This document shows, piece by piece, positions 10,265 to 36,810 of a stretch of 36,810 bases of DNA; within the stretch, counting starts at the first letter, position 1; each line of letters begins with the position of its first letter. The notes under the pieces were generated by a model. The model did not search any database, was not told where the DNA came from, and was given only the letters and a program-made list of their open reading frames with translations. Origin of the DNA: Paraphysomonas bandaiensis (taxonomy: Eukaryota; Protista; Chrysophyceae); contig CBFFRP010000542.1 of NCBI GenBank assembly GCA_965644295.1, positions 1-36,810 of the forward strand, read 5' to 3'. A program made the position numbers and the translations under genes.

Positions 10265-10391
10265 CTCCCTCTCAATTCAAAGCTGTAACACATGGCATAA
10301 CTGACGGATACGCAACCACCGAAACCGTATAGGACAAACCGGTGGACGTATGGCTCCGACGTTTCAGCTAGCCTCTCCGTAGACAACACGT

Positions 10392-13106
10392 TTATGAGCC
10401 TCTGTTTCGTTTGTATGAATTCTCTCTGATGACATCCACAGATGACTTCTGATCTTCTCCTAGACATCTCTTTCTATGCTCCTCGTATATAACGCCACAC
10501 AAAGATTTCGTAAATATGTCTGCAGTCTGGTTATCAGTTCCAACGTGATACAATATCGCAGTGTTAAAACGTCCTTCTGGATCTACATGTTCACGCACCC
10601 AGTGGTATTTGATTTCAATGTGTTTTGATCTTTTGTGGAACACTGGATTTAATGCTAGATCACGAGCACTCTGGCTATCTAAAAAAAATGGAGTGGGTTC
10701 GTACAGTCGAAGTCCCAATTCGGCCAACACCCCCCGAAGCCACACCAGTTCTTGCATGCCAGCGTACATAGCTTGGTACTCACTCTGCATTGAAGACGTA
10801 GACACAGTAACTTGTAAGATTGATTGCCAGGTGAGTGGTCCACCTGCTGCAAACACAATGTATCCAGTTGTCGACCTTCGTGACACAGTATCGCCTGCCC
10901 AGTCAGCGTCTGTGAAAATATGCATGTCAAAGCTCTTACCACTGAACCGAATACCTTTCCGCACAGTACCCCTGATGTATTGTAACAAATAAGTCATCAA
11001 CTTGCATGTAGCCTTTGTTGGTTTCGAAGCATATCGTGACAATAGGCCAACAGCATACGCAATATCTGGACGCGTATTCATTGATAGATATAGCATGGCA
11101 CCTAGTAAGCTACGATAGGGATAATTGTCGACTCCCTCTTCCTCCTGAGATGAGTTCTCACTATCAGTGCAATTAATCCTGTCCATGGCATCTACAGGTA
11201 GTGGGGATTTGCGAACTTTGTTTGAAGGTCCAAGGAATGCTGCATATTTGGTGAGAATTTTTTCAGCGTATGTCGATTGGTCAAGTTGAAAATAATTCTT
11301 GGTCCTTGTAACTCGAACGTTGAGAAAATGCTCTAATTCTCCCATGTCTGACATGTCAAATCTTTCACAAAACCGTTTCTTGATTTCTGTCAAAATAGTC
11401 AGATCCGCACAAGCGATTACTATATCATCAACGTATATGGTTAAGTACACACGATGACCTTTGTACATCATATAATATAGACATGGTTCTAAAATGCAGG
11501 GTTTGAATCCCAAAGACTTTATAAATCCATGTATGGTCTTCCACCATGAACGTGGAGAACTCCGAAGGCCATATAGTGAGCGATATAGTTTGAAACAGTG
11601 TCCTGGTGGCAACTGAAAATCGGGAGGAGGGTCCATGTACACGTCTCCTTCGATTTTAGCATAACAGAATGCATTCGACACGTCAAGTTGATGGATGTGC
11701 ATACTAAACATGAAAGCAAGGGCAATGATTAGTCTAACCGTAATCGATTTCACCACAGGAGCAAATGTATTTTCGACGTCTATACCTGTCCTTTGACCAT
11801 ATCCCAGAGCGACCAGACGAGCTTTATGCTTTTTTATTGATCCATCTTTATTGTATTTTCGTTTGAACACATATCTGGACTTTAGAGGTCTAACACCAGG
11901 TGGCGTCTCAACGACATTAAACACTTCCCGCTTGAATAATGCATTCCGTTCTAATCGTCTAGCTTCCTTCCAATTTGAAGCTTCAGGACATGTCAATGAC
12001 TCTTCATACGTCTCAGGCTCTCTATAAGTAGACGAGTTAGACATAAGTGCGCAATCACTCTCATCACACAAGTTAACAATCTCCTCGTCATGGAGAAGGT
12101 TTACCTCACCCAGGGTGGACACATTAGTCAACACCCTTCGGATTCGCGTACGTTTACCACTGGTCTCCCTTGACTCAGCATGTACAGTACCACTATTCTC
12201 ACTTGGCACACAAGAAGGTACATTCTCAAAGACACGATTCGCGCTGACCCCACTCGGTACAGCACCCGCACTACTCTCCGGCAAAGTACGAAGGGACATT
12301 CTCTTCCCTGGAATCTCATCCGCCGTAGACTTATTGGGCGTGTCACCCGAAGCCGGCGTATATGACGATCCACCTCTCTTGTCGTCACAAGAACGAGGTT
12401 TTGAGTACAGCCTGCGGTTATAGTCACCAGTCAACTCGGCAATATCACGTACGTGAATAGGGACTTTTTCTTCTATCTGCTCTTTCCCAGCAGTTACTAG
12501 CGCCCTAAACGCCACAATTAGTCCTTTTCGCACCACAACTCTCGTAGTCTTGAAGAGAAACCCGTCGTCCACATGATACGAACCAATCAGATGTTTAAAC
12601 TCTTCAACTGATCGATCTAATGGGTCAGTTTTGACTAAGGCCTCTTCAAGCTCTGCATAGTACTCCTTATCTCTTGGAGGTATACTTTCATCATACAGAA
12701 CATGTACTGATACGACTTCTTTGTCACCAAGCCACACACGGGATCCCTTTTTCGTATTGGATAGACCTATGAAATACCCAGTCTGCGACTTCTCCTGCCA
12801 GTCCTTTCGACGATCACCTTTGGGAATAAGCACATAAGCCTTGCACCCCCAGCGTCGAAATCTCGATAAGTCAGGGACTGAACCTCCTGGGACGCATTCC
12901 ATTGGAGACATCCAACCTCGATATGTACGTGTAGGCATTCGTCGAACTATCATGCATGCATATACATAAGCATCCCACCAAAAAATTACGGGTAATCCTG
13001 AGTCCATTAACAGAGCCAGAGTCATTTCTCCCAATGTTCGATTCCTACGCTCAGATACACCATTCATCTCAGGGCTGTCTGTGGAGCTCCAAGTGATGCT
13101 AGTTCC
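10392..13106 (-). CDS. pol: Copia polyprotein 3' part: integrase C-terminal part, RT, RNase H
   Basis: PEMNGVSERRNRTL, KARLVALG, QLDVSNAF, LYGLRS, YVDD, TRPDIAYAV, DADWAGD, KRSKHIEIKYH, ADIFTK. Confidence 0.95.
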   Translation of the reverse strand, partial: GTSITWSSTDSPEMNGVSERRNRTLGEMTLALLMDSGLPVIFWWDAYVYACMIVRRMPTRTYRGWMSPMECVPGGSVPDLSRFRRWGCKAYVLIPKGDRRKDWQEKSQTGYFIGLSNTKKGSRVWLGDKEVVSVHVLYDESIPPRDKEYYAELEEALVKTDPLDRSVEEFKHLIGSYHVDDGFLFKTTRVVVRKGLIVAFRALVTAGKEQIEEKVPIHVRDIAELTGDYNRRLYSKPRSCDDKRGGSSYTPASGDTPNKSTADEIPGKRMSLRTLPESSAGAVPSGVSANRVFENVPSCVPSENSGTVHAESRETSGKRTRIRRVLTNVSTLGEVNLLHDEEIVNLCDESDCALMSNSSTYREPETYEESLTCPEASNWKEARRLERNALFKREVFNVVETPPGVRPLKSRYVFKRKYNKDGSIKKHKARLVALGYGQRTGIDVENTFAPVVKSITVRLIIALAFMFSMHIHQLDVSNAFCYAKIEGDVYMDPPPDFQLPPGHCFKLYRSLYGLRSSPRSWWKTIHGFIKSLGFKPCILEPCLYYMMYKGHRVYLTIYVDDIVIACADLTILTEIKKRFCERFDMSDMGELEHFLNVRVTRTKNYFQLDQSTYAEKILTKYAAFLGPSNKVRKSPLPVDAMDRINCTDSENSSQEEEGVDNYPYRSLLGAMLYLSMNTRPDIAYAVGLLSRYASKPTKATCKLMTYLLQYIRGTVRKGIRFSGKSFDMHIFTDADWAGDTVSRRSTTGYIVFAAGGPLTWQSILQVTVSTSSMQSEYQAMYAGMQELVWLRGVLAELGLRLYEPTPFFLDSQSARDLALNPVFHKRSKHIEIKYHWVREHVDPEGRFNTAILYHVGTDNQTADIFTKSLCGVIYEEHRKRCLGEDQKSSVDVIRENSYKRNRGS

Positions 13107-13110
13107 AAAC

Positions 13111-14254
13111 TGTAACCCTGGGGGTTTATATAGTAGCAAGTGTAGTAGTGAAATAGGGTATTCAACAACAAGAAGAGAGTCAACAACAGAAGAAGGACAG
13201 CAAACAGTACAAGATAATTATTTACGAAGGAAGTGCAAACATCTAGCCACGAGTCACGGAATTACAACAAGCCATTCACACTGAAGTGCATACTTGCGGC
13301 TACTCTAGGCAGTTATTAATATCACGACACTCAAAACACGTTACCCAGTATCTCTACTACTTGCAATACATGTGAAGCCAGCCGACTGCACCTGTTGTTT
13401 TACGACGTAGAGGCAATAAGGGCAATGGAGAGAGACTTAGGTAGCATCAACGTGATGTACACACAATTCTCTCTGCATCATCCTCAGAACAGCATAAGAA
13501 GGGATCTTCAGATGTTGCTAGTACATCCTGAACATAAATGTCTCAAGTTAAGTGCAGAACTATGGATGTACACAGCCCAATACCTCTGTGAGCTGCATTT
13601 TCATGATGGTGCTCTGGATGTGGAGATGAGCAGGAGTTAGGACCATTCAAGAGCATACTATAGACGCTATGCATGGTGATGCTGCTAAGCAGGCATAGTG
13701 GGTGGCTATTATGGCAAGCGTGTGGCTTAAAGAGGAATATATGGAGAGAGTAAAGATGCAATAAGTTTTATATGAGTTTAGGGAGTATGATAAGAGCAGT
13801 AGACTATCAGCGAATACGGTATCACGTTACTCATTTTAGTTAGCTGTTTTTCAGTTTTATCACTATGGTTTTATTTCAGTTTTATGCGTAGTTTCAGTTT
13901 TATGCGCAGTTATTCAGTTTCATACGCTGTTATTCAGTTTTGTTTTATTGTCATAATACGTGTGGTATACACGGTGTATGCAAGAATGCATGCGGTGTGG
14001 TGTGTGTGATATAAAATGAACTTGGTTCATTCTGTAGATGCGTACCATTCTATATGTTATTCCTTGCATGTCATTGTTTTAAGTTACTTGACACTGTCTT
14101 AACAGCGATCTTTATTCTTAGAGGGAATACTGCGCGGCGTTATCTAGCGGATATCGTTGACCGTGTTGGGTGATTTAACAGTAATAATAAGTGTTTACTC
14201 ACACCTTATTATATATTTTGTTGGGAGCAAACCCGCAAGTCTGGTTTGTGCATA
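13111..14254 (+). repeat. Element B 5' LTR (TGTAAC...TGCATA)
   Basis: Repeat of 19455-20598; identical ORF translations in the track. Confidence 0.95.
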
Positions 14255-14511
14255 GTAATATTACTACTAGTCCCATAAGGCCTTTTATATTGCGTAGTAG
14301 TGTACTAGATAATTATCATTTATATTGGAAGTCATTGACCATTGTGGGGGCGAAGTTTGAAGCAACAATATCTCATCTTGTACTGTGCCTGCGGACAAGC
14401 ACGTCAAGACAGTAGATTTGTTACAGAGAGCTTAGCATTCACATAGGACAAAGACAACCACCAGTAGCTAGTCTGATAGTAAGATACAATTGTCTTAGCA
14501 TATAGACAGTA

Positions 14512-15426
14512 ATGGATGTCAATCAAGACGAAGCCACAGACCTGCAGCGTCTAATGCAGGGATTCGTAGAGCAAATTACAGGCATGGTAAATACTCTAAC
14601 TGAGACAGTAGCTGGGGTAAAAGATGACGTAGCTGGGCTCAAGCACGACGTAGCTGAGGTCAGCGATGAGCTCAAGGAATTGAGAGTAAGAATAGCTGTC
14701 TTGGAAGGATCGTACTCATTTCCACAACCCCTTGAAAATTCTCCAGCTGCAGTTTCGAAGTCAGTGAATGATGCTTCTGCAGGACAAGATGTTTGTGCTG
14801 CAAAAGAGCCCTTGAACATTAATATTGAAAATTTAAATTCTACCAGTGTGGAGTGCATGTTGGAACAAGAAACTGTCGTTTGTACTGAGGATAAAGAGAT
14901 GACCGAAAAGTCTTCTGAAATTCATAATGAGGATTCGGAATATGCCGAAAAGGAAGCTTTGATTGCGGTTATTGATTCTCAGGTTACTCCACTGGGTGAA
15001 ACTTTGATTGAAGAACTTAGACATCCAGAATTTCTTTCTGAGAAGTCCAAGTCTACTCAACAAAATGACTCAAAAGATGCAGGGTGTTCTGTTGTTAAGA
15101 CTGTAAAGGTCATTTCAGTGAATCAGCTTTCAGTTGAAAACCATACTGTCAACGACGATATTGACGGTGACACAATTGTCATGTCAACACATCAATCAGC
15201 CCTGCCATCGAAGGCTGTTGTTACTCCCTTAAGCTATCTTCTGGTTATGCCTGGACGAGTTATGGGAAAGCATTTGACATTGTTGAGTCATCTTGAAGTG
15301 GTTAATCTTCTTTACACCAAAATGATGTTTGAGGAACCATGCTTGTGTTTTAAAGAACTTGTACAGCGCGATGAGCATGGCCCTGGACCGCCTTTTGTCA
15401 CTTCGGTGAATCTATTTCAATTTTAA
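14512..15426 (+). CDS. Gag-position ORF of element B (304 aa); N-terminal coiled coil resembles the lineage Gag, remainder divergent
   Basis: LRVRIAVLEGS resembles LDSRVQALESS (A) and TASRVDNLESR (C). No capsid-like core or zinc finger recognised. Confidence 0.55.
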   Translation: MDVNQDEATDLQRLMQGFVEQITGMVNTLTETVAGVKDDVAGLKHDVAEVSDELKELRVRIAVLEGSYSFPQPLENSPAAVSKSVNDASAGQDVCAAKEPLNINIENLNSTSVECMLEQETVVCTEDKEMTEKSSEIHNEDSEYAEKEALIAVIDSQVTPLGETLIEELRHPEFLSEKSKSTQQNDSKDAGCSVVKTVKVISVNQLSVENHTVNDDIDGDTIVMSTHQSALPSKAVVTPLSYLLVMPGRVMGKHLTLLSHLEVVNLLYTKMMFEEPCLCFKELVQRDEHGPGPPFVTSVNLFQF

Positions 15427-16791
15427 AGAGAACCTATTGGGATGAAGATTGGCCGTACCCGATGTTGATGTTGTATTATTGTTGTTATTGGAGACACGTT
15501 ACCATCAGGGTGCCAATTCATTTCTTTTGATGAGAAGGTGATAGTATTGTTTGTGACGAACGGGTTCATCAGTTTCTAAATCAAAGGATTCGTTATTCAA
15601 TGCTTGTGAGGGAAATGTTGTATCGTATATCGTAAATATTTTATTCAATATAATGTCAGTTAAAATTCAGTCATTATTATATTATATGCTTGAGGAGAGG
15701 AGTGTCTACACGCGGTTACATTTTCAATGTAGCATTGAGGAAAGATGTTTCTTCGCTGGATGTCCATTGTGTAATTCATGATTCGTTGATCAATGTAGAT
15801 ACGGGAGTCGGTAGTGAATGTGTGCAGTTCATGTCTCAGAACAATATTATCAAAGGCTATATGGACTCAAGGACAACTGTTGTATACAATCTTTGTATAT
15901 ATTATGGTGTGAAGACTGCTAAATGGCTTGGTGATTCATCCGAAATATATATAAGATTGGATTGAGTTTTGAGAAGTTTGAATGTGTATATATATTCCAG
16001 AAGCTATTATTTATCATACTTATATCTAATATTTTGATCATTGAGAATGCATCGTCAATGCCAGTGATTATTGCAAATTGAGGATCAGTTGTTGTTATTT
16101 GATTTTGAGAAAGTCTTCCAGAGTTATTTTGAGAATTCTGTTTAAATATTGATATCAGAGTGGTCAATGGGCTCAATGATGTACTGCCATACTGTTTAGT
16201 TTCTTTCAATGATTGCTACAAGAGGAATTTGATTCTGGAGTTTGTTGAAAATGTTTCAAACGTGTTACGGATCAAAATGCGAGTCTTGTCAGTCTCGTAC
16301 GAATGTTCTGGTGACATCATTAAAATGAATCATTCTGAGTTGCCATCACTTGTTCGATTTATATAATTCAATCTACGGTCAGTTACGTACATATGGATCT
16401 TCTGTTGTGCAGTTTGTATTGACTGAGTTGGATTATCTATTGTTGTGAGTTGCAAACTGGGATAAACTGAGAGTAGTCGGTTTTCTGTGTGAGAGAGAGT
16501 GATTTGAACATTCATCATTTTCATCAGGAATTATCAACAATTACGTTGCTCGTCATTGATGGGTGGGATATACGGTTGGAATTCAGAAAGTGATACGAGT
16601 AATAAAACCTTGTACGCTAAAGGAAGGAGCTTGTGAGTATACCTCCTATATGCCTATAATCTATTTTGTCGAGCGTTGTATTCGAATATCTTTCAACATA
16701 TATTCGATTTAAGCAAGTGGAGTGTGATGTTTCTCAATACGGAGTTGTTACGGATTCCAATGAATTCAGTGATTGAGACATATATATAGTC

Positions 16792-19380
16792 ATGTTTGAC
16801 AACATGTTGATCTTAGCTGAAGACCCCGCTGATGCATACAAAAAGTTTGAAATGATAATTGACCGGTGTATTGAACGTAATGAAAAACTCAAGATGCCTA
16901 AGAGTTGGCTGGGATTCCGGGAAGTGAATTTCTTTGGCTACGTGTGCAGACACAAATCGTATGAGGTCAGTCCTGATAAGAAGGAAGCTTTGGCTAACAT
17001 TCCAATGCCTACGAGTACTAAGACGGCCAGAAGCTTACTAGGAAAAGGAGTTTTCTTCTCAGGGTTCACACCTAGATATTCTGACTTGGTAGGTCATCTT
17101 CCGGACATGACCAAGAAAACTTTCAACTGGGATAAATCTACATGGAAGCATGATTACGAAGAGGAGTATCGAAAATTCATAAAGGGTCTACAAGATGCCT
17201 GTGAGTTATTTTATCCCGACTATTCGTTAGAATGGATCCTAAGAACTGATGCTAGCGAGCTAGGAGTAGGAGCAGTATTATTACAGAAGAAAATTTTAGA
17301 GGATGGTACTGTTCAGTTACAACCAATAGCATTTATATCGAAAAAATTCTCAACGCAAGCACAACGATGGGCTACGATAGAGCAGGAAGGCTACGGTATC
17401 TATTATGCTGTCAGAAACCTCGCATATTATTTAGTGGGCAAGGAGTTTATTATTGAGACCGATCATAACAATTTAGTGTGGATGGAGGCATCTGAAGTAC
17501 CTAAAATTGTGAGATGGCGTATATACCTGCAATCGTTTAACTTTATGATTCGGCACATTCCAGGTTCTCAAAATTGGTTAGCAGATTGGCTCTCCAGAGC
17601 ACATAAGTTGCAACATTTGGCTGGTATATTTCCTGATGTGGACATTGAGGAATACATTGATGAAACTATGTTTGGCAACTTAGACATCTATCTTAACAAT
17701 TTTATGGATCCGGATGACAAGGAAGAAGAGTTGGAACCGTTGTATTTATCCAAAGAGGAAAGTTTTCAAGCAGTTCATAATGCCAGACAAGGTCACAAAG
17801 GAGCTTATGCCACGTGGGTAAAATTGAATAAGAAATGCCCGGGACACAGGATATCTTTTGAAGAAGTCACCGAGATGATCAATAAATGTCCCAACTGTGC
17901 TAAGACACGACTCGGAATGCAAGAAGCTTTGATAGCTATACCTCGCAGTTTAAAACCACCTTCAGCTCGTAGTGCCATCGGTATCGATGCAGTGGAAATT
18001 ACACCCCACGGTAAAGAAGGCTACACGCATATTAACGTGGTGGTAAATCTGTTTACAAAACATGTCTTCCTCGAACCAGTGAAGGGAGTCACTGCCATAA
18101 ATCTTGCTAATACTGTATGGAAGTATTGGAGTCAATTTGGTCATACTGATGTGATCATATCGGATCAAGGACCTGATCTAAAATCCCAATTATTTGACCA
18201 ACTTTGCTCATATATTGGTGTCAAACACACATTCAGCATAGCGGATAGACATGCCAACGGATGCGAGAGGATCATAGGAGAGGTAGTGCGGCATTTAAGA
18301 GCATTAGTATTTGATTACAGTGAGAAAGAAGAGAAGCGAGATGTATTTGAAGACCCCAGCTGGATTCCTACAGTGGCACATGTATTGAATTCTGAAGTAT
18401 CATCTGAAACGGGGTATTCGCCTTTTGAGTTAACATTTGGTTCTGAGAGTGAGAGGTATAACAATATGGGAAGGGATGAAGTACCAGAGAAAGCCCATGC
18501 TAGACTACATAAACTCAATGATAATCTAGCTCTGTTGCAACGCAGTTCGAGAGAATATCAAGATAAGTTGAAGGCCAAACGTTTCAGTAAAGGCATATCT
18601 CCTCAGCGACAGAATCAGTATCAGCCGGGCGACTTTGTTTTATTTGACAAAGGGGCCAAGGTTTACCCTAAAATGTCTCATAGATACCTAGGACCATTTC
18701 AGGTTATATCGCAATATAAGAATGATATTGACTGCAAACATTTGGTGACCGGAGTTGTAACAAAAGTAGATGTACGGGATGTAAAATTATATCCCGGAGA
18801 CAGGGAACAAGCCTATAAAATGGCTATGCGAGATCATGATCAGCATGAGATCGACACTATTTTATATTACACTGGAGACAGAGAACGGCGTTCAACAATG
18901 TTGTTTACAGTACGTTTCAAGGATGGAGATATCAGAGAGCTACCTTACAGCCAGGATTTATTTGATTCCATAGCCTATGAGGAATTCTGTAGCAGCAAGC
19001 CTTATCTACATCATCTTATTTATACCACGGATGGGGCCGCCAAATATATCAGTGAGAAGAGGAAGCAGTCAATAACTACGGTTCAACCGGGTGACGAGGT
19101 GTATGTAGATATCAGAGTATTCGGAGATGACTGGTATGATGCCCTACAACTACCAGATTCGCCCACTGTTACATATGTGATGCAATTTATGCTCACTCAC
19201 TGGTATCATAAAACCAGCAAGAAGCTAATTTCTGTCAAGAATCCCATGACCAAAGCCACATACAGATTTGATAACTACCATGTGAAATGTTTTGTACATC
19301 GCGACTTCGATCCGCCGACAACTATGGTACTGATAGATTCCGACTTTGCGCTACGTTTTCCCCAAGTCCATCAACATTAA
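16792..19380 (+). CDS. pol: Partial Pol of element B: RT from motif C onward, RNase H, integrase, GPF, chromo-like tail (862 aa)
   Basis: Colinear with element C Pol: LRTDAS, ETDHNNL, ADWLSR, HHCC, GIDAV, ISDQG, NGCER, GPFQV. Confidence 0.93.
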   Translation: MFDNMLILAEDPADAYKKFEMIIDRCIERNEKLKMPKSWLGFREVNFFGYVCRHKSYEVSPDKKEALANIPMPTSTKTARSLLGKGVFFSGFTPRYSDLVGHLPDMTKKTFNWDKSTWKHDYEEEYRKFIKGLQDACELFYPDYSLEWILRTDASELGVGAVLLQKKILEDGTVQLQPIAFISKKFSTQAQRWATIEQEGYGIYYAVRNLAYYLVGKEFIIETDHNNLVWMEASEVPKIVRWRIYLQSFNFMIRHIPGSQNWLADWLSRAHKLQHLAGIFPDVDIEEYIDETMFGNLDIYLNNFMDPDDKEEELEPLYLSKEESFQAVHNARQGHKGAYATWVKLNKKCPGHRISFEEVTEMINKCPNCAKTRLGMQEALIAIPRSLKPPSARSAIGIDAVEITPHGKEGYTHINVVVNLFTKHVFLEPVKGVTAINLANTVWKYWSQFGHTDVIISDQGPDLKSQLFDQLCSYIGVKHTFSIADRHANGCERIIGEVVRHLRALVFDYSEKEEKRDVFEDPSWIPTVAHVLNSEVSSETGYSPFELTFGSESERYNNMGRDEVPEKAHARLHKLNDNLALLQRSSREYQDKLKAKRFSKGISPQRQNQYQPGDFVLFDKGAKVYPKMSHRYLGPFQVISQYKNDIDCKHLVTGVVTKVDVRDVKLYPGDREQAYKMAMRDHDQHEIDTILYYTGDRERRSTMLFTVRFKDGDIRELPYSQDLFDSIAYEEFCSSKPYLHHLIYTTDGAAKYISEKRKQSITTVQPGDEVYVDIRVFGDDWYDALQLPDSPTVTYVMQFMLTHWYHKTSKKLISVKNPMTKATYRFDNYHVKCFVHRDFDPPTTMVLIDSDFALRFPQVHQH

Positions 19381-19416
19381 TTTTGACTTAGTTTTATACT
19401 GAGTTATATTATTATC

Positions 19417-19454
19417 GAAAAAAAAAAAAAAAAAAAAGAGAGGGAAAAAGGTAG
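19417..19454 (+). other. Polypurine tract of element B
   Basis: Long A run followed by GAGAGGGAAAAAGGTAG immediately before the 3' LTR. Confidence 0.9.
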
Positions 19455-20598
19455 TGTAACCCTGGGGGTTTATATAGTAGCAAGTGTAGTAGTGAAATAG
19501 GGTATTCAACAACAAGAAGAGAGTCAACAACAGAAGAAGGACAGCAAACAGTACAAGATAATTATTTACGAAGGAAGTGCAAACATCTAGCCACGAGTCA
19601 CGGAATTACAACAAGCCATTCACACTGAAGTGCATACTTGCGGCTACTCTAGGCAGTTATTAATATCACGACACTCAAAACACGTTACCCAGTATCTCTA
19701 CTACTTGCAATACATGTGAAGCCAGCCGACTGCACCTGTTGTTTTACGACGTAGAGGCAATAAGGGCAATGGAGAGAGACTTAGGTAGCATCAACGTGAT
19801 GTACACACAATTCTCTCTGCATCATCCTCAGAACAGCATAAGAAGGGATCTTCAGATGTTGCTAGTACATCCTGAACATAAATGTCTCAAGTTAAGTGCA
19901 GAACTATGGATGTACACAGCCCAATACCTCTGTGAGCTGCATTTTCATGATGGTGCTCTGGATGTGGAGATGAGCAGGAGTTAGGACCATTCAAGAGCAT
20001 ACTATAGACGCTATGCATGGTGATGCTGCTAAGCAGGCATAGTGGGTGGCTATTATGGCAAGCGTGTGGCTTAAAGAGGAATATATGGAGAGAGTAAAGA
20101 TGCAATAAGTTTTATATGAGTTTAGGGAGTATGATAAGAGCAGTAGACTATCAGCGAATACGGTATCACGTTACTCATTTTAGTTAGCTGTTTTTCAGTT
20201 TTATCACTATGGTTTTATTTCAGTTTTATGCGTAGTTTCAGTTTTATGCGCAGTTATTCAGTTTCATACGCTGTTATTCAGTTTTGTTTTATTGTCATAA
20301 TACGTGTGGTATACACGGTGTATGCAAGAATGCATGCGGTGTGGTGTGTGTGATATAAAATGAACTTGGTTCATTCTGTAGATGCGTACCATTCTATATG
20401 TTATTCCTTGCATGTCATTGTTTTAAGTTACTTGACACTGTCTTAACAGCGATCTTTATTCTTAGAGGGAATACTGCGCGGCGTTATCTAGCGGATATCG
20501 TTGACCGTGTTGGGTGATTTAACAGTAATAATAAGTGTTTACTCACACCTTATTATATATTTTGTTGGGAGCAAACCCGCAAGTCTGGTTTGTGCATA
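19455..20598 (+). repeat. Element B 3' LTR
   Basis: Repeat of 13111-14254; follows the polypurine tract and is followed by the TSD. Confidence 0.95.
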
Positions 20599-22632
20599 AA
20601 ACTTGCTCATTAAGTATTGCTGAATGGACTTGTCGATCAACTCAGCCCCCCCATCCGAATGGTACTGTATCAACCGGTGTGAACCGGGATATGTAGGGAG
20701 TTTACGCTCAACCCAGTCCTTCACGCAACTCAACACCTCATTCGCAGACCGTGTCTCCAACGGATATTCCCAAAACTCCTTGGTGGCTATATCTGATAAT
20801 GTCAGAACATATTTGTATCCTTGTCTGGATGGGCAATTGAAATATACAGCAATGTCCACAGAAACCTTCTCAAGGAACTCTGTAGCTTGCAGTTCGTCAT
20901 CTCTCTTTGCGGTGAATGATTTCCTTGTCATCTTTGATTTTGCGCAAGCTTTACAAATACCTTTCATTTTTCGTAAACTCTTCTTGCTGAGATGTCGTCG
21001 GGTTAATCCGCTCCCGGTAAAAAGTCTGTGTTTAAACGCTTCAATCAGCTTATGTTTGCTGACGTGTCCACAGCGCTTGTGTAACATCTCTAACGGATCT
21101 TCATGCACCTTGTCGGACAAATATACTTCCTCCAGCATTGTCAAATTTGGAAGATCAAGTATTTCCTGTAAATTTACATAAGGCATTCCGTTGCTTGAGT
21201 AGGTTGCCTCCAATACAGTCTCCCCAGTATCAAGTCGCACAACAGTGGGCTTGTTCAACAACTGCAATCCATACCCGTGAGAACGGAGTATTCCTCCAGA
21301 GCAGATATTCTTGACTGATCCAGGGCAGATCTTGATGTCAGTCCAATCGCCAAAGCCTCCAGTTTCCTCATAGTGTAAACTGGATCCAGCTCTGGTTGTC
21401 TGTATATTTCCATCCTCCTTCTTGACCGTATGAAGGAAATTTCTGTCCTTAACAATGAACAGTTTATTAGAGGCACAGCTGTCTAAATACACGGGTTCAT
21501 CGGAAGTGTGTAGCACCTCTTCAGAGACACATGAATCATCATGCGGTTCCTCATACATAATCATGTTCACAGAGTCCGAATCTTCCTCTTGCTCCTCTCT
21601 CCGCAAAAAACGATTCCAATCTGTGCGTTTTGCAGGCTTTTCGTCCAAAAATGGCCGGTTTTTGTCTCCTTGGGCAGAGTCACTACGTACTTGAGCACGA
21701 AATTTGCACTTATACGCACGATGTCTGGTGTCTCCACATACATAGCAGCCATCTGATTTTTTCTTCTCGTTGTTGTCTCTGCGACTCTCAGATCGATTCC
21801 TAGCGCCACGACTCTTTCCCTGCCTTCTTAATTTCGCGATCTTAAGGTCTCTCTTCTTCTTCCAGCACGATTTCTGTGAGTGACCCCGTTTGCCACATTT
21901 GGGATAGCTGCACACCTCATTTTCATCAGCAGTGGAATTCATGTTTACTTCGTCGGTGCCTTCTTTCGGGACACCTTTTGCCTGATCGTATCTCCTGCAT
22001 ATGGTGATCATATCAATAAAGGTTATGTCACCTTGTAGGTAGAGATTGGTGTACAATTGCTCCAAATCGCTTCGTGTTTCGAGGGCAGTCTGTAACTTCG
22101 TTTTTTTAGCGATGTCAGTGGGTGGTTCCCCCAACTCGGACATTTTTTGACAGATGCCGTTTAGTCGATCGATTGCTGCGCACACGAGTTCCCCCGGTAG
22201 AATTTTGAATCCTGCAAACTTCTTATTCAATTCAACTAATTCATATTGGATTTCCCCTCGAAACCGAACAATTAACCTAGAGATGAGTTCACTCGCTAAC
22301 TGCTCTTTATCAGGATGGTCCTGCGGGAGCATATCCTTTTCCCGGAAGTACTGATCCACGATCTCAAGGGCTTCAGCGACTGGTTGAACAGCTTCAAATA
22401 TCGAACTGATGCACGTGTCTTTCCTCTCCAGCCACTTGTCCAGATCCTCCTTGTACTTATTTCGGACTGTCACTGGCGCATTATTTGCTGGTCTTACTGG
22501 ACGGTCCTCTAGACCCAGATGGTTCCTGTTCTTCCTCATCAACCACACTTTCAGATTCTTTGACCAATTCACTACACCGAACTGATCAAATTTAGGAAGA
22601 AGTTTCCACTCCGAACTACTGTCTGCTACCAT
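20599..22632 (-). CDS. gag-pol: Copia polyprotein 5' part: Gag (two CCHC knuckles), protease, integrase N-terminus and core
   Basis: CSYPKCGKRGHSQKSC, CYVCGDTRHRAYKC, VYLDSCAS, LHKRCGH...CKAC, VSVDI, YHSDGG. The rejoined ORF is 1582 aa from the ATG at 22632; an upstream ATG at 22647 is possible. Confidence 0.93.
22622..22631 (-). other. Copia primer-binding site (initiator tRNA-Met type)
   Basis: TGGTAGCAGA abuts the 5' LTR and is complementary to the ...UCUGCUACCA end of many eukaryotic initiator tRNAs. Confidence 0.8.
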
Positions 22633-22951
22633 GTTAGAAATAGACATTTTTAGTAATAAGACCTTTGTTAACACTTATATGGAATATTATATAATTATAA
22701 GAGATACCATACTTCATTCATTGACGTTCACCAACTCTTTCTATCTCTACTACACCAACCATTTCTAGTACGATCTTACATCGTCACTATCTTGTACAGT
22801 CAGTATATTTCAGTTTTATCACTACAATGGCTATCATATTATTGGTTCTCATACTACAGCTAGCTACTACTGTATTCTTTGAGTAACGGATATAATTCTA
22901 ATATCTTGGAAACTACAGCTTTTAATTGCTCACAAACAGCAAAACTCAACA
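22632..22951 (-). repeat. Copia 5' LTR
   Basis: Direct repeat of 9945-10264. Confidence 0.97.
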
Positions 22952-29160: not shown

Positions 29161-30123
29161 AAAGACAGACCCCCAGTCTAAAGACTCCTCCTCATACACA
29201 GGACATTGAATGCATCCACAACCGTACAATATGCTCATACATGTACTACACTACATACGATTCATATCCTACATCGTTTATAGTCAAAAACGCCCTGAAA
29301 TACGCCTAAATAGGTCCTTTCCAAAAACCTCCGATTTTTGAGTCCCAAAACCCCAAAAATCCCCAATTTTTTGAGAATTGCAGAAAATCGCCGATTTTCG
29401 AGCCACAAACACCCAAAATGACAATATTCGAATCCACAAAAATTGCAAGCACATTTCATGACAACGTGAAATACACAATCGCCAACTCATGCATAATACC
29501 GACAAAATGCAATCGGGTTCAAAAGCTTACAACCGAACGGTTAAATATCATTTCCTTGCAAGAGTGTGTACTTTAGACTGGACCATACAAATACACTCAT
29601 ATTCAGATCACTAACATGCCCATGACACCTCTGCATCTGCGTCCAATGGCACCTTACGAATTCCTCCCCATTCCGGAGAAAATCAACGGTGTATGGCAAT
29701 GGAGGAATATTCGTATATCAGAATCCAGAACAATGATCAAGCACATAGAGCTGTTCAAAACCATCAGAAAGCTTCTCATAATGATGGGTGGACTACGAAT
29801 ATCGCACATGCGGTACCAATCAATGCTTCCTGACCCAAAACGCTATGACACCGACTACCGTATGGATATAGGCGTAAACCGACGGGTAGCAATCGCGTAG
29901 ATCAAAGAAAACGTGTGTTCGAGGGTAAATCCTAGTTGTCTGTCGTCTTGCCCTCGTAATAATAATCTGTATCTCTTGTTGTCACCAATCTTATACAAAA
30001 CAAGCTACATATACCCTACATATTATGTTATCATATCGTTATTGCATTAATATAGTTATCAATATTATTATGATGATGTCATTAAACGTGTTAAAGGGTG
30101 TTATAAAAGCCCACGGCTTTACA
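29161..30123 (-). repeat. Element C 3' LTR (appears to lack its last ~52 nt)
   Basis: Starts TGTAAAGCC after the polypurine tract. Identity with the 5' LTR stops at 29161/35863. Confidence 0.92.
29616..29900 (+). CDS. 94-aa antisense ORF within element C 3' LTR, unknown function
   Basis: Intact ATG-initiated ORF in both LTRs. A possible decayed counterpart lies at a similar position in the element B LTR. Confidence 0.4.
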   Translation: MPMTPLHLRPMAPYEFLPIPEKINGVWQWRNIRISESRTMIKHIELFKTIRKLLIMMGGLRISHMRYQSMLPDPKRYDTDYRMDIGVNRRVAIA

Positions 30124-30142
30124 TTACCCTTTCTCCCCCCCC
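30124..30142 (-). other. Polypurine tract of element C
   Basis: GGGGGGGGAGAAAGGGTAA directly before the 3' LTR. Confidence 0.9.
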
Positions 30143-30153
30143 GGATGCCGTAG

Positions 30154-33100
30154 CTACTCCTGAATAATGTTGGGATAAGCCGCAGCGAGCGACGCATCAA
30201 CCAAAATCATGCGAGCAGGGTCAAAATCCTTCTGGGACCCCCAACAATAGACCAAATAGTTGTCGAAGGCATAGTTGGAACCGTTGAGATTAAAACGGGC
30301 GCTAATCTTGCGTTTGGAATTCTTGTGATACCAATGGGTGTACGTGAATTCCATGACATACGCGGCCGTGGCATAATCCGGTAAACCAAGACTCTCGTAC
30401 CACAGGTCACCGTAGAACCTGAGATCAACATAGACAGTATCTCCAACCGACACTGTTGTGATATTCTCTTTCCTCATTGAAGAAATAAAACGCTTCGCAG
30501 TAAACGAGTCGTATGCGAGGTGCCGCAAGTAAGGCCTAGACTCACAAAAATCGTAATATGCCTCACACTGAATATCCGGTGTCCATGGAATGTCCAAGAT
30601 ATCGCCGTCCGCATACTTCACCTTGAAGACCATCGTAGATTTGGTTCGTGAATCTCCCGTATATGAAAGAATCTCCTCCACCTTAAATTGTTCATGGTCT
30701 CGCATCGCCGCTTCAATAGCCGATTCCTTATCTCCGAAAAATGGCTCAAGATCAGAGACAGAGTATTCCCGAATTCCCCCGGTAAGAATATTACGAATTT
30801 GAACATCGTTCTTGTATTGTCGCACCACTTCGAAAGGACCCTTCATCCTCGAGGATAATTTCGGATGTGGTTTAGCACCAGCGTCGAACATAACAAAATC
30901 GCCTGGACAATACTGGTTTTGTTTGGCAGGATCCAAACCCGCTTCCGCTCGTTTCTCAACTAGAGACTTCTGGTAGTCTGCTGATATCTGGCGAACTAGA
31001 GCTAAGTAATCGTTCAGCCTTTTCAACAGCTGATGAGACGGATCATTGTCTCTCCCCTGGGCAGCCAAAAGATTCTTATAGATAGAATCCTGGGACCCAA
31101 ACGTCAGTTCGAATGCAGAATACCCCGTCTCACTACTCTCGTGGGTATTCAGAATGAACATGATAGTGGCAAGTAACAGTTCGTCCTCCAAAACAGCATC
31201 CGCCTCAATTCGCTTGTCAAAACAAATAGCACGGATGTGACGAACCACTTCCTTAATAATACGCTCACACCCATTGACATGCCTGTTGGCGATACTAAAA
31301 ACATGACGGAGTCCTGACAACTTAACCAGCTCTGCGAAAAGCTCTGATTTGAGATCCGGACCCATATCTGATATAATCATATCCGTGAGCCCGTATGTAC
31401 ACCAGCACTTCCATACTGCTGTAGCCAAATTGATAGCCGTCATTCCTTTCACCGCATATAGGTACACCAATTTCGTAAACAAATTAACCATGACCACAAT
31501 ATGCGTGTAACCAGATTTAGAAACAGGTGTAATAGCAACCGCGTCAATTCCCAAAGCACTCCTGGAATGAGGCGGTTTTAAATGTCTAGTGATAGGAATC
31601 AATCGCTGCTTCAGCTCTCGCCTATTCTTCTGACAGTTGATACATTCGTCCACGAAGTCTGCAACCACCTTGAAAGGCACGCCGTGTCCCGGAAATTGCC
31701 TACACAGACGTTTCCACGTCTCTTTCGCACCCCAGTGTCCTGCTTGCGCGTTGTGAACCTCTTTGATAGCCTGATAATAATCTATCCTCTGTACCTCCGT
31801 AGGCGGCGCGATCTCTTGAACGTCGTCCTCAAAATCGTCTTTTTCAAAGATGTTATGCAGTGTCACGAAGTTCACTTCATCTGAGTCGAAATCGTCACTT
31901 TCGTCCACAAATCCGGACAAATACAGCAATCTTGACAAGCAATCCGCAACCACATTGTTCTTCCCTGGGATATGACGAATCAAAAAGTCAAAATCCTGCA
32001 AATAAATTCTCCATCGAATTATCTTCGCAACTTCTGATGCCTCCATCCACACAAGGTTGTTGTGGTCCGTCTCGATTGTAAATTTCTTTCCTCTCAGATA
32101 AAACGAAAATTTCTTGACTGAATAGAATATACCAAAACCCTCCTTCTCAATAGTACACCACTTCAAGGCTTGCTCTGACAATTTCTTGGAACAGATAGCA
32201 ATAGTTTGCTGTTGAATCGGACTAGACCCAGTTCCCTCAACAGTCTGGAAAAGAATGCCTGCCACTCCATAGTCACTAGCATCTGTCCTAAGTGTCCACT
32301 CAAGATCATAATTCGGATAAAACAAAGCACAAGACTGTTGCAAACCACTCTTATAGTTTTCAAACTCCTGCCTATAATCGTGCTGCCATGTCGTTTCTTC
32401 CCAATTAAAACTACTCTTAGTCATATCCGTAAGATGTTTAACCAAATCTGAGTAATTCTGAACAAATGGAGCAAAGAATACTCCCAGACCCAACAAAGAT
32501 CTAATCTTCTTACATCTATTTCCATTCTCTGGAAAAGGAATCTTCAATAAAGCCTCTTTCCTATCGTCCGTGAGCTCGAAACTATTGTGCCTTACCAAAT
32601 AGCCAAAAAACTTGATCTCCCTAAATCCTAACCAGGTCTTTGCAAATTTCAACACAACTCCATGTTCAATGCATCTATCCAGGAAAATCTCCAGCTTCTT
32701 ATACGCATCATCAAAATCATGTGCCAATAACAGAACATTATCAAATATACACAGCGCCCATTCCAGATCTCCAAACAATTTGACTACCGCTTCTTGCAAC
32801 ACACTAATCCCTGGAGACACTCCCTCCGGAAGGAATAAAGGCTGAAATTGGCCCCACGGTGTTTGAACTGACAATTTTTCAGATGTGTTCTCATGCAACC
32901 TGATCTGATGGAACGCATTCGTGAGGTCAATGTCCATAAATATCTTATAGCCAATAATACGATCCAACTCATGTCTTACATTAGGAACTGTATAGTGTGG
33001 ACTTGGAATGTACTTGTTGATTTGCACGTAATCCCCACAAATCCTAATAAAAGGTTTCGTGGCTTTTGGCGCGATCACCAAACAAGAAGCCCACGGCGAC

Positions 33101-34092
33101 CTACTAGGAACATAGATGTAACCACACAGTCTCCTAAACTCCTTCTCCGCATCCTCATATAATCTAGGATTTACGGGTCTTGCCTTCGGCTTGATCCTAG
33201 GAGGCAAATTCTCAGCGAACTTGATGTTCAACGGATCCACTCCTTTTATACCTTCCCACCGCTCTGGAACAAATACCTCTACTCCCTTAGTCCTCAATAA
33301 CTCCAGCACCGGTCGCGCTGCTGAGAACTCTGGAGACACGTGCTCACCAAACATATCCTCGAACTCGCTCAAAGCTTCCTCTCTAGTCTTTCCAAGAAAA
33401 CTTGAGGCAAATCCGAACTGCGAAGGGTCCGGAACATCCAATTCTTCAGGTGCTACCTCCCTACTACTGTCACACCACGGCTGCAATAATTCTTCAACCG
33501 CATTCAACAACAAATCATCCTCGGTAACATCGTCCTCACGCCTTTTAATAAAACTTACTTCTGATTCAATTCGTTCAATAGTCCTTCCTTTAAGCATAAA
33601 TAGAAAATAATCCCATAGATCCTTAACGATAGCCGGAAGTCCAATAATAATATCGTTGCTACCCATATCAGCAACAATGAAATCCCCGTCATATATCACG
33701 AACTCTCCCTTGGAGTCTTCTCTCTCAAACCTCAATTTTAATTTCACTACAAAACTACACTTCATTCTCGACGTTTTATCGGCAAATCCTATAACTGTTT
33801 CTTTTTTTATGACTTTGTTTTCACACACATGATTTCTAAACGTCTCAAACAAATCCTTGGAAATGAAGTTAGATGTTAGGGCTCCAGTGTCGAACAATAT
33901 TCCACGCACAGATATTATATAGTTATCATCACATACAATGCTTCCCCCAGAATGAGCCAATGTCAAGTCTTTTCGTTCTCGCGTATTACAGACATTCATC
34001 AAATTTCTGAGGAAAACTCGACTAACAGTCTCAGGATCATTCAAACCGTACAATATTTCTTCGTGATCCTGCGAACCATTAGCCTCGCACAT
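30154..34092 (-). CDS. pol: Pol of element C (1312 aa): protease, RT, RNase H, integrase, chromo-like tail
   Basis: FDTGA; SPWAS, RICGDY, DLTNAFHQI, CIFDN, FFGY; TDAS, TDH, ADCLSR; HHCC, D,D33E, GPF. Confidence 0.96.
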   Translation of the reverse strand: MCEANGSQDHEEILYGLNDPETVSRVFLRNLMNVCNTRERKDLTLAHSGGSIVCDDNYIISVRGILFDTGALTSNFISKDLFETFRNHVCENKVIKKETVIGFADKTSRMKCSFVVKLKLRFEREDSKGEFVIYDGDFIVADMGSNDIIIGLPAIVKDLWDYFLFMLKGRTIERIESEVSFIKRREDDVTEDDLLLNAVEELLQPWCDSSREVAPEELDVPDPSQFGFASSFLGKTREEALSEFEDMFGEHVSPEFSAARPVLELLRTKGVEVFVPERWEGIKGVDPLNIKFAENLPPRIKPKARPVNPRLYEDAEKEFRRLCGYIYVPSRSPWASCLVIAPKATKPFIRICGDYVQINKYIPSPHYTVPNVRHELDRIIGYKIFMDIDLTNAFHQIRLHENTSEKLSVQTPWGQFQPLFLPEGVSPGISVLQEAVVKLFGDLEWALCIFDNVLLLAHDFDDAYKKLEIFLDRCIEHGVVLKFAKTWLGFREIKFFGYLVRHNSFELTDDRKEALLKIPFPENGNRCKKIRSLLGLGVFFAPFVQNYSDLVKHLTDMTKSSFNWEETTWQHDYRQEFENYKSGLQQSCALFYPNYDLEWTLRTDASDYGVAGILFQTVEGTGSSPIQQQTIAICSKKLSEQALKWCTIEKEGFGIFYSVKKFSFYLRGKKFTIETDHNNLVWMEASEVAKIIRWRIYLQDFDFLIRHIPGKNNVVADCLSRLLYLSGFVDESDDFDSDEVNFVTLHNIFEKDDFEDDVQEIAPPTEVQRIDYYQAIKEVHNAQAGHWGAKETWKRLCRQFPGHGVPFKVVADFVDECINCQKNRRELKQRLIPITRHLKPPHSRSALGIDAVAITPVSKSGYTHIVVMVNLFTKLVYLYAVKGMTAINLATAVWKCWCTYGLTDMIISDMGPDLKSELFAELVKLSGLRHVFSIANRHVNGCERIIKEVVRHIRAICFDKRIEADAVLEDELLLATIMFILNTHESSETGYSAFELTFGSQDSIYKNLLAAQGRDNDPSHQLLKRLNDYLALVRQISADYQKSLVEKRAEAGLDPAKQNQYCPGDFVMFDAGAKPHPKLSSRMKGPFEVVRQYKNDVQIRNILTGGIREYSVSDLEPFFGDKESAIEAAMRDHEQFKVEEILSYTGDSRTKSTMVFKVKYADGDILDIPWTPDIQCEAYYDFCESRPYLRHLAYDSFTAKRFISSMRKENITTVSVGDTVYVDLRFYGDLWYESLGLPDYATAAYVMEFTYTHWYHKNSKRKISARFNLNGSNYAFDNYLVYCWGSQKDFDPARMILVDASLAAAYPNIIQE

Positions 34093-34095
34093 TTG

Positions 34096-35565
34096 TCAAG
34101 TCACTCCACCAGGCCTCGGCAAAATCTTTCGCGGCCCTTTGGAATCATCTGCCATCATCTGAGACAGCTTCTTCATCATCCATTTCCGGGTTTCCGTTGC
34201 AACTGCTCCATTATGACCCTGGACATGCTTACATTCCTTCCCTTTGTAGCAGTTCCCATACAACGCATACGCAACGCAACCACGGGTTGGATTAACAGTC
34301 TTCTCTAGGTTCATCACCTGTTCTATAGCTTCCTTATCAGACTCTGGTTCGCCGAGCAACATCTCCTCAACCTCATTCTCGAAATCATCATCTGACATCC
34401 CGTCATCCTTGACCACAACTATCGGGTCAACCTCCTTGTCATCTAAATCACTGTAGAAATCATCCTCAACTCGGTCCGCAAACTGCACGTTGTTTAAAGA
34501 TTTCGGTTTCTCCTTTGCAACGTATCCATTGTCCCGATTCCTCGAACTCCTTTGAATTTGCTTCCTACTGAAATCGGACCCTTCATAAGGCACCAATCTG
34601 ATGTTCTTGGACGCCTCATAATGCTCACTCGCCTTGGAAACGTATGTATCCAGAAACTCTTCAACATTACCATAATTAGTATCCGTCACCCTTGGAATCT
34701 CAGCCAGAACTCGTTTGTTGTAAGACTCGTCGATCAACTCCAAAAATACTTGAGCCGATCCAAACTCTTTTCCTCCAACCGGCGGACACTTAGTACTATT
34801 GGCCTCCATCATGATAGTAAACGTACGCATAAAAATACTCTTTCGCTTCAAAATCTCTTGAAAAAACAGCTCATGTGTATTCGGCCGCACTGATTTCCAA
34901 TCCAGTGGCTTAAAATATCTCAGCGCGTATCGCAAAGTCTCAATGAACTCAACTTTGGACAACACCTTGGTCTCCTTAGCCATCATCTCACAGAATTTCT
35001 GAGCACTCAACTTAACAAACATTTTATCCGTCAAGCTATTGTTGAACATAAGCAGGTTCCGAACACGCCTGCTAACTATCTGGGCTGGCTCAAGCTTAAT
35101 CCCATTGATCTGTTCATATTCAAACCATTGGATGATAAACTTTGTAAAATCACTAAGCTCCATCGAATCCAGAAAAATATGCTTATGGGATGGCTTTTCA
35201 ACATTGATGATGACATGCTTTGGAACCTCCATTCCCTCTGAAGACTCAGCCTCCCTCATGAATACAGATGTCCTTCGCTCTTTCTTCTTGCCTTTGTCGT
35301 CGGCAGCCCTGCCACTCTCTCTGGTATGTCCCTGCTGCTCTTCACGCTGGTCACGGATGGCCTCATCTACTTCCTTCTGAGCTTCCTCCAGCTCATTAAC
35401 TAAAACTTCTTCATTAATAGACATTCTGGACTCCAGATTATCTACCCTACTGGCAGTTGCTACACACAACTTAGTGACGTTCTCCAAATTGAGAGCAATT
35501 CCCCGTAACATTTCCTTAACTTCATCTAACTCAGATGAACCAACAGGACCCTCCGAATCAGACAT
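34096..35565 (-). CDS. gag: Gag of element C (489 aa) with C-terminal CCCH-like finger
   Basis: Homologous to 751-2553; CVAYALYGNCYKGKECKHVQGH at 34213-34278. Confidence 0.88.
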   Translation of the reverse strand: MSDSEGPVGSSELDEVKEMLRGIALNLENVTKLCVATASRVDNLESRMSINEEVLVNELEEAQKEVDEAIRDQREEQQGHTRESGRAADDKGKKKERRTSVFMREAESSEGMEVPKHVIINVEKPSHKHIFLDSMELSDFTKFIIQWFEYEQINGIKLEPAQIVSRRVRNLLMFNNSLTDKMFVKLSAQKFCEMMAKETKVLSKVEFIETLRYALRYFKPLDWKSVRPNTHELFFQEILKRKSIFMRTFTIMMEANSTKCPPVGGKEFGSAQVFLELIDESYNKRVLAEIPRVTDTNYGNVEEFLDTYVSKASEHYEASKNIRLVPYEGSDFSRKQIQRSSRNRDNGYVAKEKPKSLNNVQFADRVEDDFYSDLDDKEVDPIVVVKDDGMSDDDFENEVEEMLLGEPESDKEAIEQVMNLEKTVNPTRGCVAYALYGNCYKGKECKHVQGHNGAVATETRKWMMKKLSQMMADDSKGPRKILPRPGGVT

Positions 35566-35810
35566 TTCGATATATATCTATAAACTACAATAATGATATC
35601 TTCACTTACGTGTTTTACCGTAAGTAAATTTACTATGAACAACTCAGGTCTTGCAACCTAAGATCACTGAAAAGATATGAAATGGTTGTTTATCGAAACA
35701 ACAAAACAGAAAGCTATAATAATAACTCTTTAAGAAACCAACAGCCAGAAACACAAGCTCCCCTGTATCCTGCAATCTAAAGCTCCCAATAGACAGATCA
35801 GTCAACCAAC

Positions 35811-36810
35811 TATGTTAATTTCATAGAGAATTATTATTAAAACTAAAGTTACAAGCGAAACAAAAGACAGACCCCCAGTCTAAAGACTCCTCCTCATACA
35901 CAGGACATTGAATGCATCCACAACCGTACAATATGCTCATACATGTACTACACTACATACGATTCATATCCTACATCGTTTATAGTCAAAAACGCCCTGA
36001 AATACGCCTAAATAGGTCCTTTCCAAAAACCTCCGATTTTTGAGTCCCAAAACCCCAAAAATCCCCAATTTTTTGAGAATTGCAGAAAATCGCCGATTTT
36101 CGAGCCACAAACACCCAAAATGACAATATTCGAATCCACAAAAATTGCAAGCACATTTCATGACAACGTGAAATACACAATCGCCAACTCATGCATAATA
36201 CCGACAAAATGCAATCGGGTTCAAAAGCTTACAACCGAACGGTTAAATATCATTTCCTTGCAAGAGTGTGTACTTTAGACTGGACCATACAAATACACTC
36301 ATATTCAGATCACTAACATGCCCATGACACCTCTGCATCTGCGTCCAATGGCACCTTACGAATTCCTCCCCATTCCGGAGAAAATCAACGGTGTATGGCA
36401 ATGGAGGAATATTCGTATATCAGAATCCAGAACAATGATCAAGCACATAGAGCTGTTCAAAACCATCAGAAAGCTTCTCATAATGATGGGTGGACTACGA
36501 ATATCGCACATGCGGTACCAATCAATGCTTCCTGACCCAAAACGCTATGACACCGACTACCGTATGGATATAGGCGTAAACCGACGGGTAGCAATCGCGT
36601 AGATCAAAGAAAACGTGTGTTCGAGGGTAAATCCTAGTTGTCTGTCGTCTTGCCCTCGTAATAATAATCTGTATCTCTTGTTGTCACCAATCTTATACAA
36701 AACAAGCTACATATACCCTACATATTATGTTATCATATCGTTATTGCATTAATATAGTTATCAATATTATTATGATGATGTCATTAAACGTGTTAAAGGG
36801 TGTTATAAAA
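35811..36810 (-). repeat. Element C 5' LTR (its first ~15 nt lie beyond the window)
   Basis: 35863-36810 repeats 29161-30108. The inner end at 35811 (...TTAACATA|GT) is inferred by analogy with elements A and B. Confidence 0.85.
36318..36602 (+). CDS. Second copy of the 94-aa antisense LTR ORF
   Basis: Identical translation to 29616-29900. Confidence 0.4.
   Translation: MPMTPLHLRPMAPYEFLPIPEKINGVWQWRNIRISESRTMIKHIELFKTIRKLLIMMGGLRISHMRYQSMLPDPKRYDTDYRMDIGVNRRVAIA

Follow-up and report, generated by a model that had tools for sequence, protein, structure and literature searches.

The window, that is, the whole stretch of 36,810 nucleotides of Paraphysomonas bandaiensis DNA analysed here (contig CBFFRP010000542.1), carries members of three families of one Ty3/gypsy group, which we call elements A, B and C, together with a Ty1/copia element (Table 1). 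Element B is inserted in the integrase gene of the copia element (9945-22951), forming nested, very recent insertions, and the interrupted copia frame confirms the 4-bp duplication of element B. Intron-split host genes lie at 4471-5671 (minus strand), 5951-6295 (plus strand) and 24552-25563 (plus strand); they correspond to a polyprenyl synthetase (PF00348), an exon without a Pfam match that we take from its likeness to be probably ribosomal protein L18a, and a RING-finger protein. The stretches 26296-29048 and 3531-4039 hold a fragmented element with no Pfam match, part of which recurs as an inverted copy at 3763-4039 and in which an RNase H-like IFTDGS was read by eye; these fragments are probably remnants of a non-LTR retrotransposon.

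Table 1. Positions of the retrotransposons, their parts and the tandem array in the window.
Feature	Position	Strand	Evidence or remark
Element A, gag-TGA-protease fragment, third family of the same group	730..3207	+	tblastn with element C Gag, E 2e-18, and Pol, E 8e-15; RT outside the window
Tandem array, 28-nt period, ~24 units	8251-8922		
Ty1/copia element with YVDD RT	9945..22951	-	identical 320-nt LTRs, TGG primer site, AACAG 5-bp duplication
Element B, 5' LTR, TG...TA	13111..14254	+	preceded by target duplication AAAC
Element B, segment replacing the partner's gag end, protease and RT N-half	14724..16794	+	loose ends 14723 and 16795 in runs X6/X15; tblastn
Element B, truncated pol ORF, 862 aa (rest of palm, thumb, RNase H, integrase)	16792..19380	+	starts at MFDN
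Element B, 3' LTR	19455..20598	+	1144/1144 nt identical to 5' LTR; followed by AAAC
Element C, 3' LTR, 963 nt	29161..30123	-	starts TGT
Element C, polypurine tract	30124..30142	-	
Element C, pol frame, 1313 aa: protease (DTG), RT, RNase H (D605, E652, D677, D718), integrase, GPF/SH3 and chromodomain-like tail	30154..34095	-	
Element C, RT motif C, IFDN (YxDD position)	32737..32748 (N453 codon AAT, 32739-32737)	-	translation, Ty3 alignment
Element C, RT motif B, P423-E424-G425 (PEG)	32821..32829	-	alignments; PFG in Ty3 and CaMV, PQG in foamy virus
Element C, RT motif A, D388-I-D390 (catalytic D390, clade-specific extra acid D388)	32926..32934	-	alignments
Element C, fingers residues K344 and R351	33043..33066	-	aligned to dNTP-binding Lys/Arg of Ty3 RT
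Element C, gag frame, first ATG 35565	34096..35577	-	ends in TGA in frame with pol
Element C, 5' LTR, cut by the window end	35863..36810	-	948/948 nt identical to 3' LTR

Element C is an intact Ty3/gypsy LTR retrotransposon. Pfam places RVT_1 (371-499), RT_RNaseH (598-702), H2C2 (775-825) and rve (850-937) along its Pol in the gypsy order PR-RT-RNase H-integrase, the DTG motif of the protease having been read from the sequence. The best PDB sequence match of its RT is Ty3 (4ol8, E 8e-26), and the fold matches those of CaMV, Ty3 and MLV. Many of the relatives described below carry PF00385 after the integrase; it scores above the cut-off in P0249, P0241 and P0305, not in element C or P0196, and the tail of element C aligns to the PF00385-bearing region of relatives with E ~1e-14. 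Gag and pol are separated by a single in-frame TGA in element C (34096-34098) as well as in element A (2551-2553). Related loci with an in-frame TGA are L001, L002 and L004, and also L007 and L008, where it comes after the protease; L003 and L005 have none, and some relatives have one frame of 1700-2050 aa. The L004 stop reads TGA-CTA, which we take to be a readthrough context. These features suggest stop-codon readthrough as the recoding mode of the clade, and Pol is probably made by readthrough of the in-frame TGA or by reinitiation after it.

The 1313-aa stop-free pol frame (30154-34095) contains ATA TTT GAT AAT on the minus strand at 32737-32748, that is, I450-F451-D452-N453 of the RT. When this RT is aligned with that of Ty3 (4ol8), IFDN falls on YLDD, DIDLTNAF on TLDLHSGY and LPEG on MPFG, so both the Tyr and the second Asp of motif C are substituted in element C. 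Translation, this alignment and contigs from separate runs thus confirm the IFDN that the original prediction had placed here, and its reading of the motif A Asp as intact is also right, D390 being encoded at 32928-32926 within DIDLTNAF. The fingers residues K344 and R351 presumably play the role of HIV K65 and R72.

Contigs from two separate runs cover motif C, one of 3830 nt from DNA run X5 with 8 differences, none of them in the motif, and one of 501 nt from run X15 with no difference; because both show the same letters, IFDN is not a sequencing error. Nor is it a product of chance, since Asp followed by Asn (D-N) stands in all 238 aligned rows of homologues described below. The stretch of element C is present in 20 of the 24 listed runs, with at least half of its words in 18. 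Eight full-length cluster members of 1312 aa are 99.2-99.8% identical to element C, and IFDN is read in all 10 of the 11 C-cluster members that are long enough to reach the motif. It could be argued that such motifs belong to decayed copies or arise from assembly artefacts, as a single decayed YxDN copy does exist (P0523, one of 141 background domains); given the intact long frames, the identical LTRs, the same letters in separate runs and the 238/238 conservation, we rejected this explanation, whose probability we regard as negligible.

Motif C was then compared across homologues, as had been proposed with the original prediction. The first search, limited to the best 120 of 360 matches plus element C, gave D-N in 121/121 rows. 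The second, with the divergent locus L007 as query, added 117 new sequences from the best 120 of 261 matches, and D452-N453 is found in every one of the resulting 238 rows, with RT-RNase H identities to element C of 41-100%. Among representatives clustered at 50% identity, the same query gave 291 matches at E <= 1e-30 (11,181 at 1e-10); 13 of the best 150 of these 291 had already been counted, and 135 of the 137 new ones are D-N, the remaining 2 being multi-RT concatenates of ordinary D-D gypsy. No D-D member of the clade was seen among the rows examined, the best 150 of 291 representatives included, and intermediates may exist beyond those 150. Of the loci related to element C, L001-L005, L007 and L008 read FDN, and L006 stops short of the motif. 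The substitution is therefore not a single-copy mutation, as the original prediction had maintained. A quick tree, subject to long-branch caveats, of 41 D-N rows (12 atypical, 28 random and element C) and 18 D-D rows puts all D-N rows on one side of a branch whose SH-aLRT is 100, the stem measuring 1.71 changes per column. On this tree, the D-N rows are one deep, long-stemmed clade of Ty3/gypsy, in which D-to-N happened once. The D-N clade is a real feature, namely, a clade-wide departure from the RT catalytic triad within Ty3/gypsy.

Chromodomain gypsy lineages of stramenopiles (oomycete Chronos, Ectocarpus) are described, in the available parts of two reports, as having arisen apart from chromoviruses by convergent capture (PMC5348765, PMC12477816); a word search of those parts found no mention of YXDD or of an aspartate. 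The D-N clade does not join the three chromovirus-like rows in the quick tree, with its very long stem and 18 outgroup rows, so we have not filed it as a chromovirus. Within the clade, position 650, two residues ahead of the catalytic Glu of RNase H, is Lys rather than Glu in a large subgroup (P0213-P0322; K in 101/238 rows), most of which carries a Pfam chromodomain. The literature yielded no published account of a gypsy lineage with xFDN and DxD/PEG, a search that motifs given only in figures or supplements, subscription papers and Repbase or GyDB entries would escape, and the ESM Atlas returned only generic RT clusters or clusters without taxa. As to the settings of single relatives, a pattern scan of contigs from prokaryote genome collections, whose other matches are mostly chance, found the FDN relatives L092, titled as an actinobacterial bin, and L197; both are probably eukaryotic contamination of prokaryote bins. 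The divergent FDN elements L007 and L008 lie in IMG/VR contigs, one of them labelled as part of a giant-virus bin (GVMAG), which reflects contamination during binning or else a giant virus that carries such an element.

Element B had been put forward as a second case of the altered motif. Its MFDN (16792-16803, plus strand, ATG TTT GAC AAC) is real, and the Asn is common to two families whose Pol proteins are 51% identical; what did not stand is the idea of a second working RT. Upstream of MFDN, tblastn with the element C Pol detected no RT motif A or B, the match starting at C residue 441, so element B is a truncated, non-autonomous copy. Three full-length relatives (P0196, P0197 and P0036) are 98.5-98.7% identical to it over its length (P0196, 98.7%) and read IFDN, and since the full-length partner P0196 does so, the Met of MFDN is specific to B. 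The segment 14724..16794 shows no Pol similarity by tblastn apart from a possible decayed trace in its last ~30 nt, and contigs of the full-length form diverge from element B at 14723 and rejoin it at 16795; run X17 gave no contig on element B, which is not proof of absence. The truncation, the identical LTRs, the near-identical full-length IFDN members and the contig junctions together make element B a young non-autonomous derivative with a likely FDN helper, and it would move with proteins provided in trans, the most likely provider being its IFDN partner. P0198 matches the 862-aa product exactly, and this product turns up again in P0200-P0202 and in a transcript with the label taxid 36769, Paraphysomonas; the truncated form makes up 5 of the 9 members read in its cluster. 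The ORF starting from motif C (P0195, P0198, P0200-P0202) is thus kept open across several samples and a transcriptome; speculatively, the protein may provide element B with an integrase of its own, or serve as the subunit that contributes RNase H to an RT dimer like that of Ty3.

Conservation of the RT, whose examination had also been proposed, bears on whether the enzyme works. K344, R351, D390, D452, E424 and G425 are each present in 238/238 aligned rows, and the steric gate is F/Y in all of them. The RNase H acids are kept in 237 (D605), 235 (E652), 235 (D677) and 232 (D718) of the 238 rows, nearly all misses being gaps. Between families, with the L003 rows left out, synonymous sites are saturated (pS 0.78-0.95 against pN 0.22-0.43), so pairwise dN/dS is not given. 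Among the variants listed for the C family, 32 of 38 coding changes are synonymous, compared with 21% of possible changes, and the three that fall in RT-RNase H are all synonymous. Of the same listed variants, 29 lie in the integrase region (30314-31438) and 3 in RT-RNase H (31900-33300), an excess hinting at recombination within integrase between C subfamilies. Because D-N is fixed across the clade, the other catalytic residues are kept, synonymous sites are saturated and insertions are very young, the RT of element C is very probably active with two aspartates.

The statement of the original prediction that the equivalent Ty1 change, D211N, blocks transposition and leaves polymerisation is correct: as given in the consulted part of the source, the mutant retains polymerase activity with a 223-fold lower kpol and a preference for Mn, and loses transposition (PMC2148107). 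Likewise, the available text on Ty3 reports D151N and D213N as dead, D214N and D214E as active with low processivity, and all of them as lethal for transposition (PMC5371799). Since the same change stops both Ty1 and Ty3, and a YVDD copia is present in the window, one might suppose that the polymerase is dead and persists as a scaffold or to carry RNase H, with the clade copied in trans by an ordinary YxDD RT. But D390, D452, K344, R351 and the steric gate would not then stay invariant over 372 database proteins, and element B, which shows what dependence looks like with its motifs A and B lost, has a near-identical helper that itself reads IFDN. We therefore consider a dead RT improbable.

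It is also conceivable that Asp is restored from the Asn at the RNA or protein level, by A-to-I editing that makes AAU read like GAU or by deamidation. One first-position change (AAY to GAY) would suffice, and both AAT and AAC occur. Against editing, a contig from the RNA library X17 (32725-32914, depth 3.3) has no difference, although it ends 12 nt past the motif and may hold DNA, and the X15 contig, whose RNA nature is a guess, has none either; moreover, reverse transcription of edited genomic RNA would yield D-D elements, of which there are none among the 372. Deamidation is favoured by a Gly after the Asn, whereas N453 is followed by V, I, L, M, F or A. Both routes would leave the fixed D388 and E424 unexplained, and we judge them very unlikely, even more so than a dead enzyme.

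Returning to an active two-aspartate RT, two acids near the catalytic residues are candidates for making up the loss. The residue two positions before the motif A Asp (-2) is D in 238/238 aligned rows and D in 123, E in 8 and N in 4 of the 135 D-N representatives, and the middle residue of PxG (position 424) is E in 238/238 rows and E in 134 and D in 1 of the representatives. Two background sets were compared. One comprises 141 RT domains, contributed by 118 of the 120 relatives of the chromovirus-like L061; the other comprises 77 of 78 viral-contig loci selected by a PFG...YxDD pattern. Among these 218 domains, which are redundant, being mostly badnavirus-like loci and fungal chromovirus-like elements, no D or E occurs at -2, and K occupies it in 126 and 68, respectively. 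Position 424 is F in all 141 domains chosen without the PFG pattern, F being given by construction in the second set; columns 446-451, shifted in part of the background rows, were left out of the comparison. Elsewhere, the -2 residue is T in Ty3 and foamy virus and S in CaMV. The four representatives with Asn at -2 (P0377, P0400, P0436 and P0444) look intact and sit on separate tree branches, so an acid there is not strictly required.

A structure prediction had been suggested as a way of finding a compensating acidic residue. The AlphaFold model of element C (pLDDT 91.9, pTM 0.77), which catalytic fragments of MLV RT match with a Z of ~23 and an rmsd of 2.1-2.7 over ~230 residues, places D388 and D390 on the same strand and N453 where a second strand begins. 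In the HIV RT sheet, V108 and D110 face Y188 and D186, and it is from this V108/D186 register that we infer D388 to lie diagonal to N453. The adjacency of D388 to N453 thus comes from the HIV register, not from model distances. On balance, we lean towards the view that the missing carboxylate is made up by D388 and, less surely, by E424.

Around 27 other RT columns are clade-diagnostic on the same stem. One D-to-N event on a long stem makes the co-fixation of these residues a single observation, which allows no covariation test and is no proof of compensation. The two-aspartate RT might thus be active without D388 or E424 acting as compensators, through diffuse changes on the stem, RNase H tuning or the use of Mn instead. 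This accords with the other diagnostic columns, the four members with Asn at -2 and the single origin of D-N, and also with the Ty1 D211N mutant, which prefers Mn and for which the available part of the source reports suppressors in RNase H that bring back 5-10% of transposition (PMC2148107). Yet the -2 position holds only D, E or N in 135/135 representatives, compared with mostly Lys outside the clade, and position 424 only E or D, so that metal-ligand or hydrogen-bonding chemistry is kept beside the catalytic residues, and the RNase H catalytic acids look ordinary. Compensation by these other routes is therefore possible but, in our view, less likely. The original prediction of a naturally functional two-aspartate RT with compensating changes accordingly gains support from fixation, conservation and young insertions, and, at the level of sequence, from D388 and E424 as candidate acids.

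If D388 does compensate, the active site might operate as follows. The two metals would be bound by D390 and D452, whose counterparts are the only aspartates of the triad that Ty1 and Ty3 need in vitro. D388, on the neighbouring beta-strand and diagonal to N453, would give the missing carboxylate at the catalytic-metal and primer side; alternatively, it could hydrogen-bond the Asn amide so that the carbonyl of N453 points at the metal. The usual Lys...Asp pair would thereby become an Asp...Asn pair, and the negative charge of the site would be kept. E424 presumably occupies the position of HIV Q151. More speculatively, placed under the fingers Arg, it could facilitate the release of pyrophosphate and translocation, at which Ty1 D211N fails; the apparent Kd of this mutant for pyrophosphate is ~170-fold lower according to the part of the source at hand (PMC2148107).

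Priming may be unusual as well. No TGG primer site was found at the 5' LTR edge of B or C, the only two elements with a defined LTR end, and one is present in the copia element. For self-priming of the Tf1 type, no perfect complement of at least 11 nt was found beside the LTR in the elements examined. A 14-nt palindrome, TAGTAATATTACTA, spans the LTR edge of element B (14240-14270), and short hairpins lie just inside the LTR end in both B and C (14240-14270 and 35840-35880). LTR ends other than TG...CA are known to occur. The full picture, which we offer tentatively as quite possible though short of probable, would be an undescribed protist lineage of hundreds of families in which motif A, instead of motif C, now provides the third carboxylate (a D-x-D plus D triad unreported in RTs), with a motif B Glu tuning pyrophosphate release and possibly with priming that does without a tRNA 3' end.

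To our knowledge, YxDD is treated as an invariant RT signature and is used to call copies dead. If the D-N elements are active, RT scans that require YxDD miss or mislabel a large lineage of marine and freshwater protists. The third Asp has been puzzling for two decades, as Ty1 and Ty3 mutants polymerise in vitro and do not transpose; the D-N clade would amount to a natural suppressor experiment that names D388 and E424 and offers natural D, E and N variants at -2. It may also be a source of RTs that are unusual in their metal use, fidelity or processivity.

Compared with Ty3/gypsy as represented by Ty3 (4ol8), the elements share the LTR-gag-pol-PPT-LTR organisation, the order PR-RT-RH-IN, the 4-bp target duplication (in B, that of C falling beyond the window) and the fold. 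YxDD, a typical but not defining feature of Ty3/gypsy RT, is absent, xxDN taking its place in 238/238 rows; element C has IFDN instead of YLDD, DxD instead of TxD or KxD, and PEG instead of PFG, and its RT is ~25% identical to ordinary gypsy RT. Further differences from usual Ty3/gypsy elements are the lack of a TGG primer site in B and C, the in-frame TGA between gag and pol, and the TG...TA LTR of B. Among other right-hand polymerases, the L protein of mononegaviruses has GDN as motif C, and T7 RNA polymerase works with two aspartates; judged by these motifs, they share with the D-N clade one Asp in motif A and one in motif C with Asn or nothing as the third residue, but they are RNA polymerases. 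A further parallel is with the Ty1 D211N and Ty3 D214N laboratory mutants, in which the third Asp of the triad is likewise replaced by Asn and polymerase activity, in the mutants, survives in vitro. Those mutants do not transpose, whereas here the same substitution is fixed in a radiating clade with very recent insertions.
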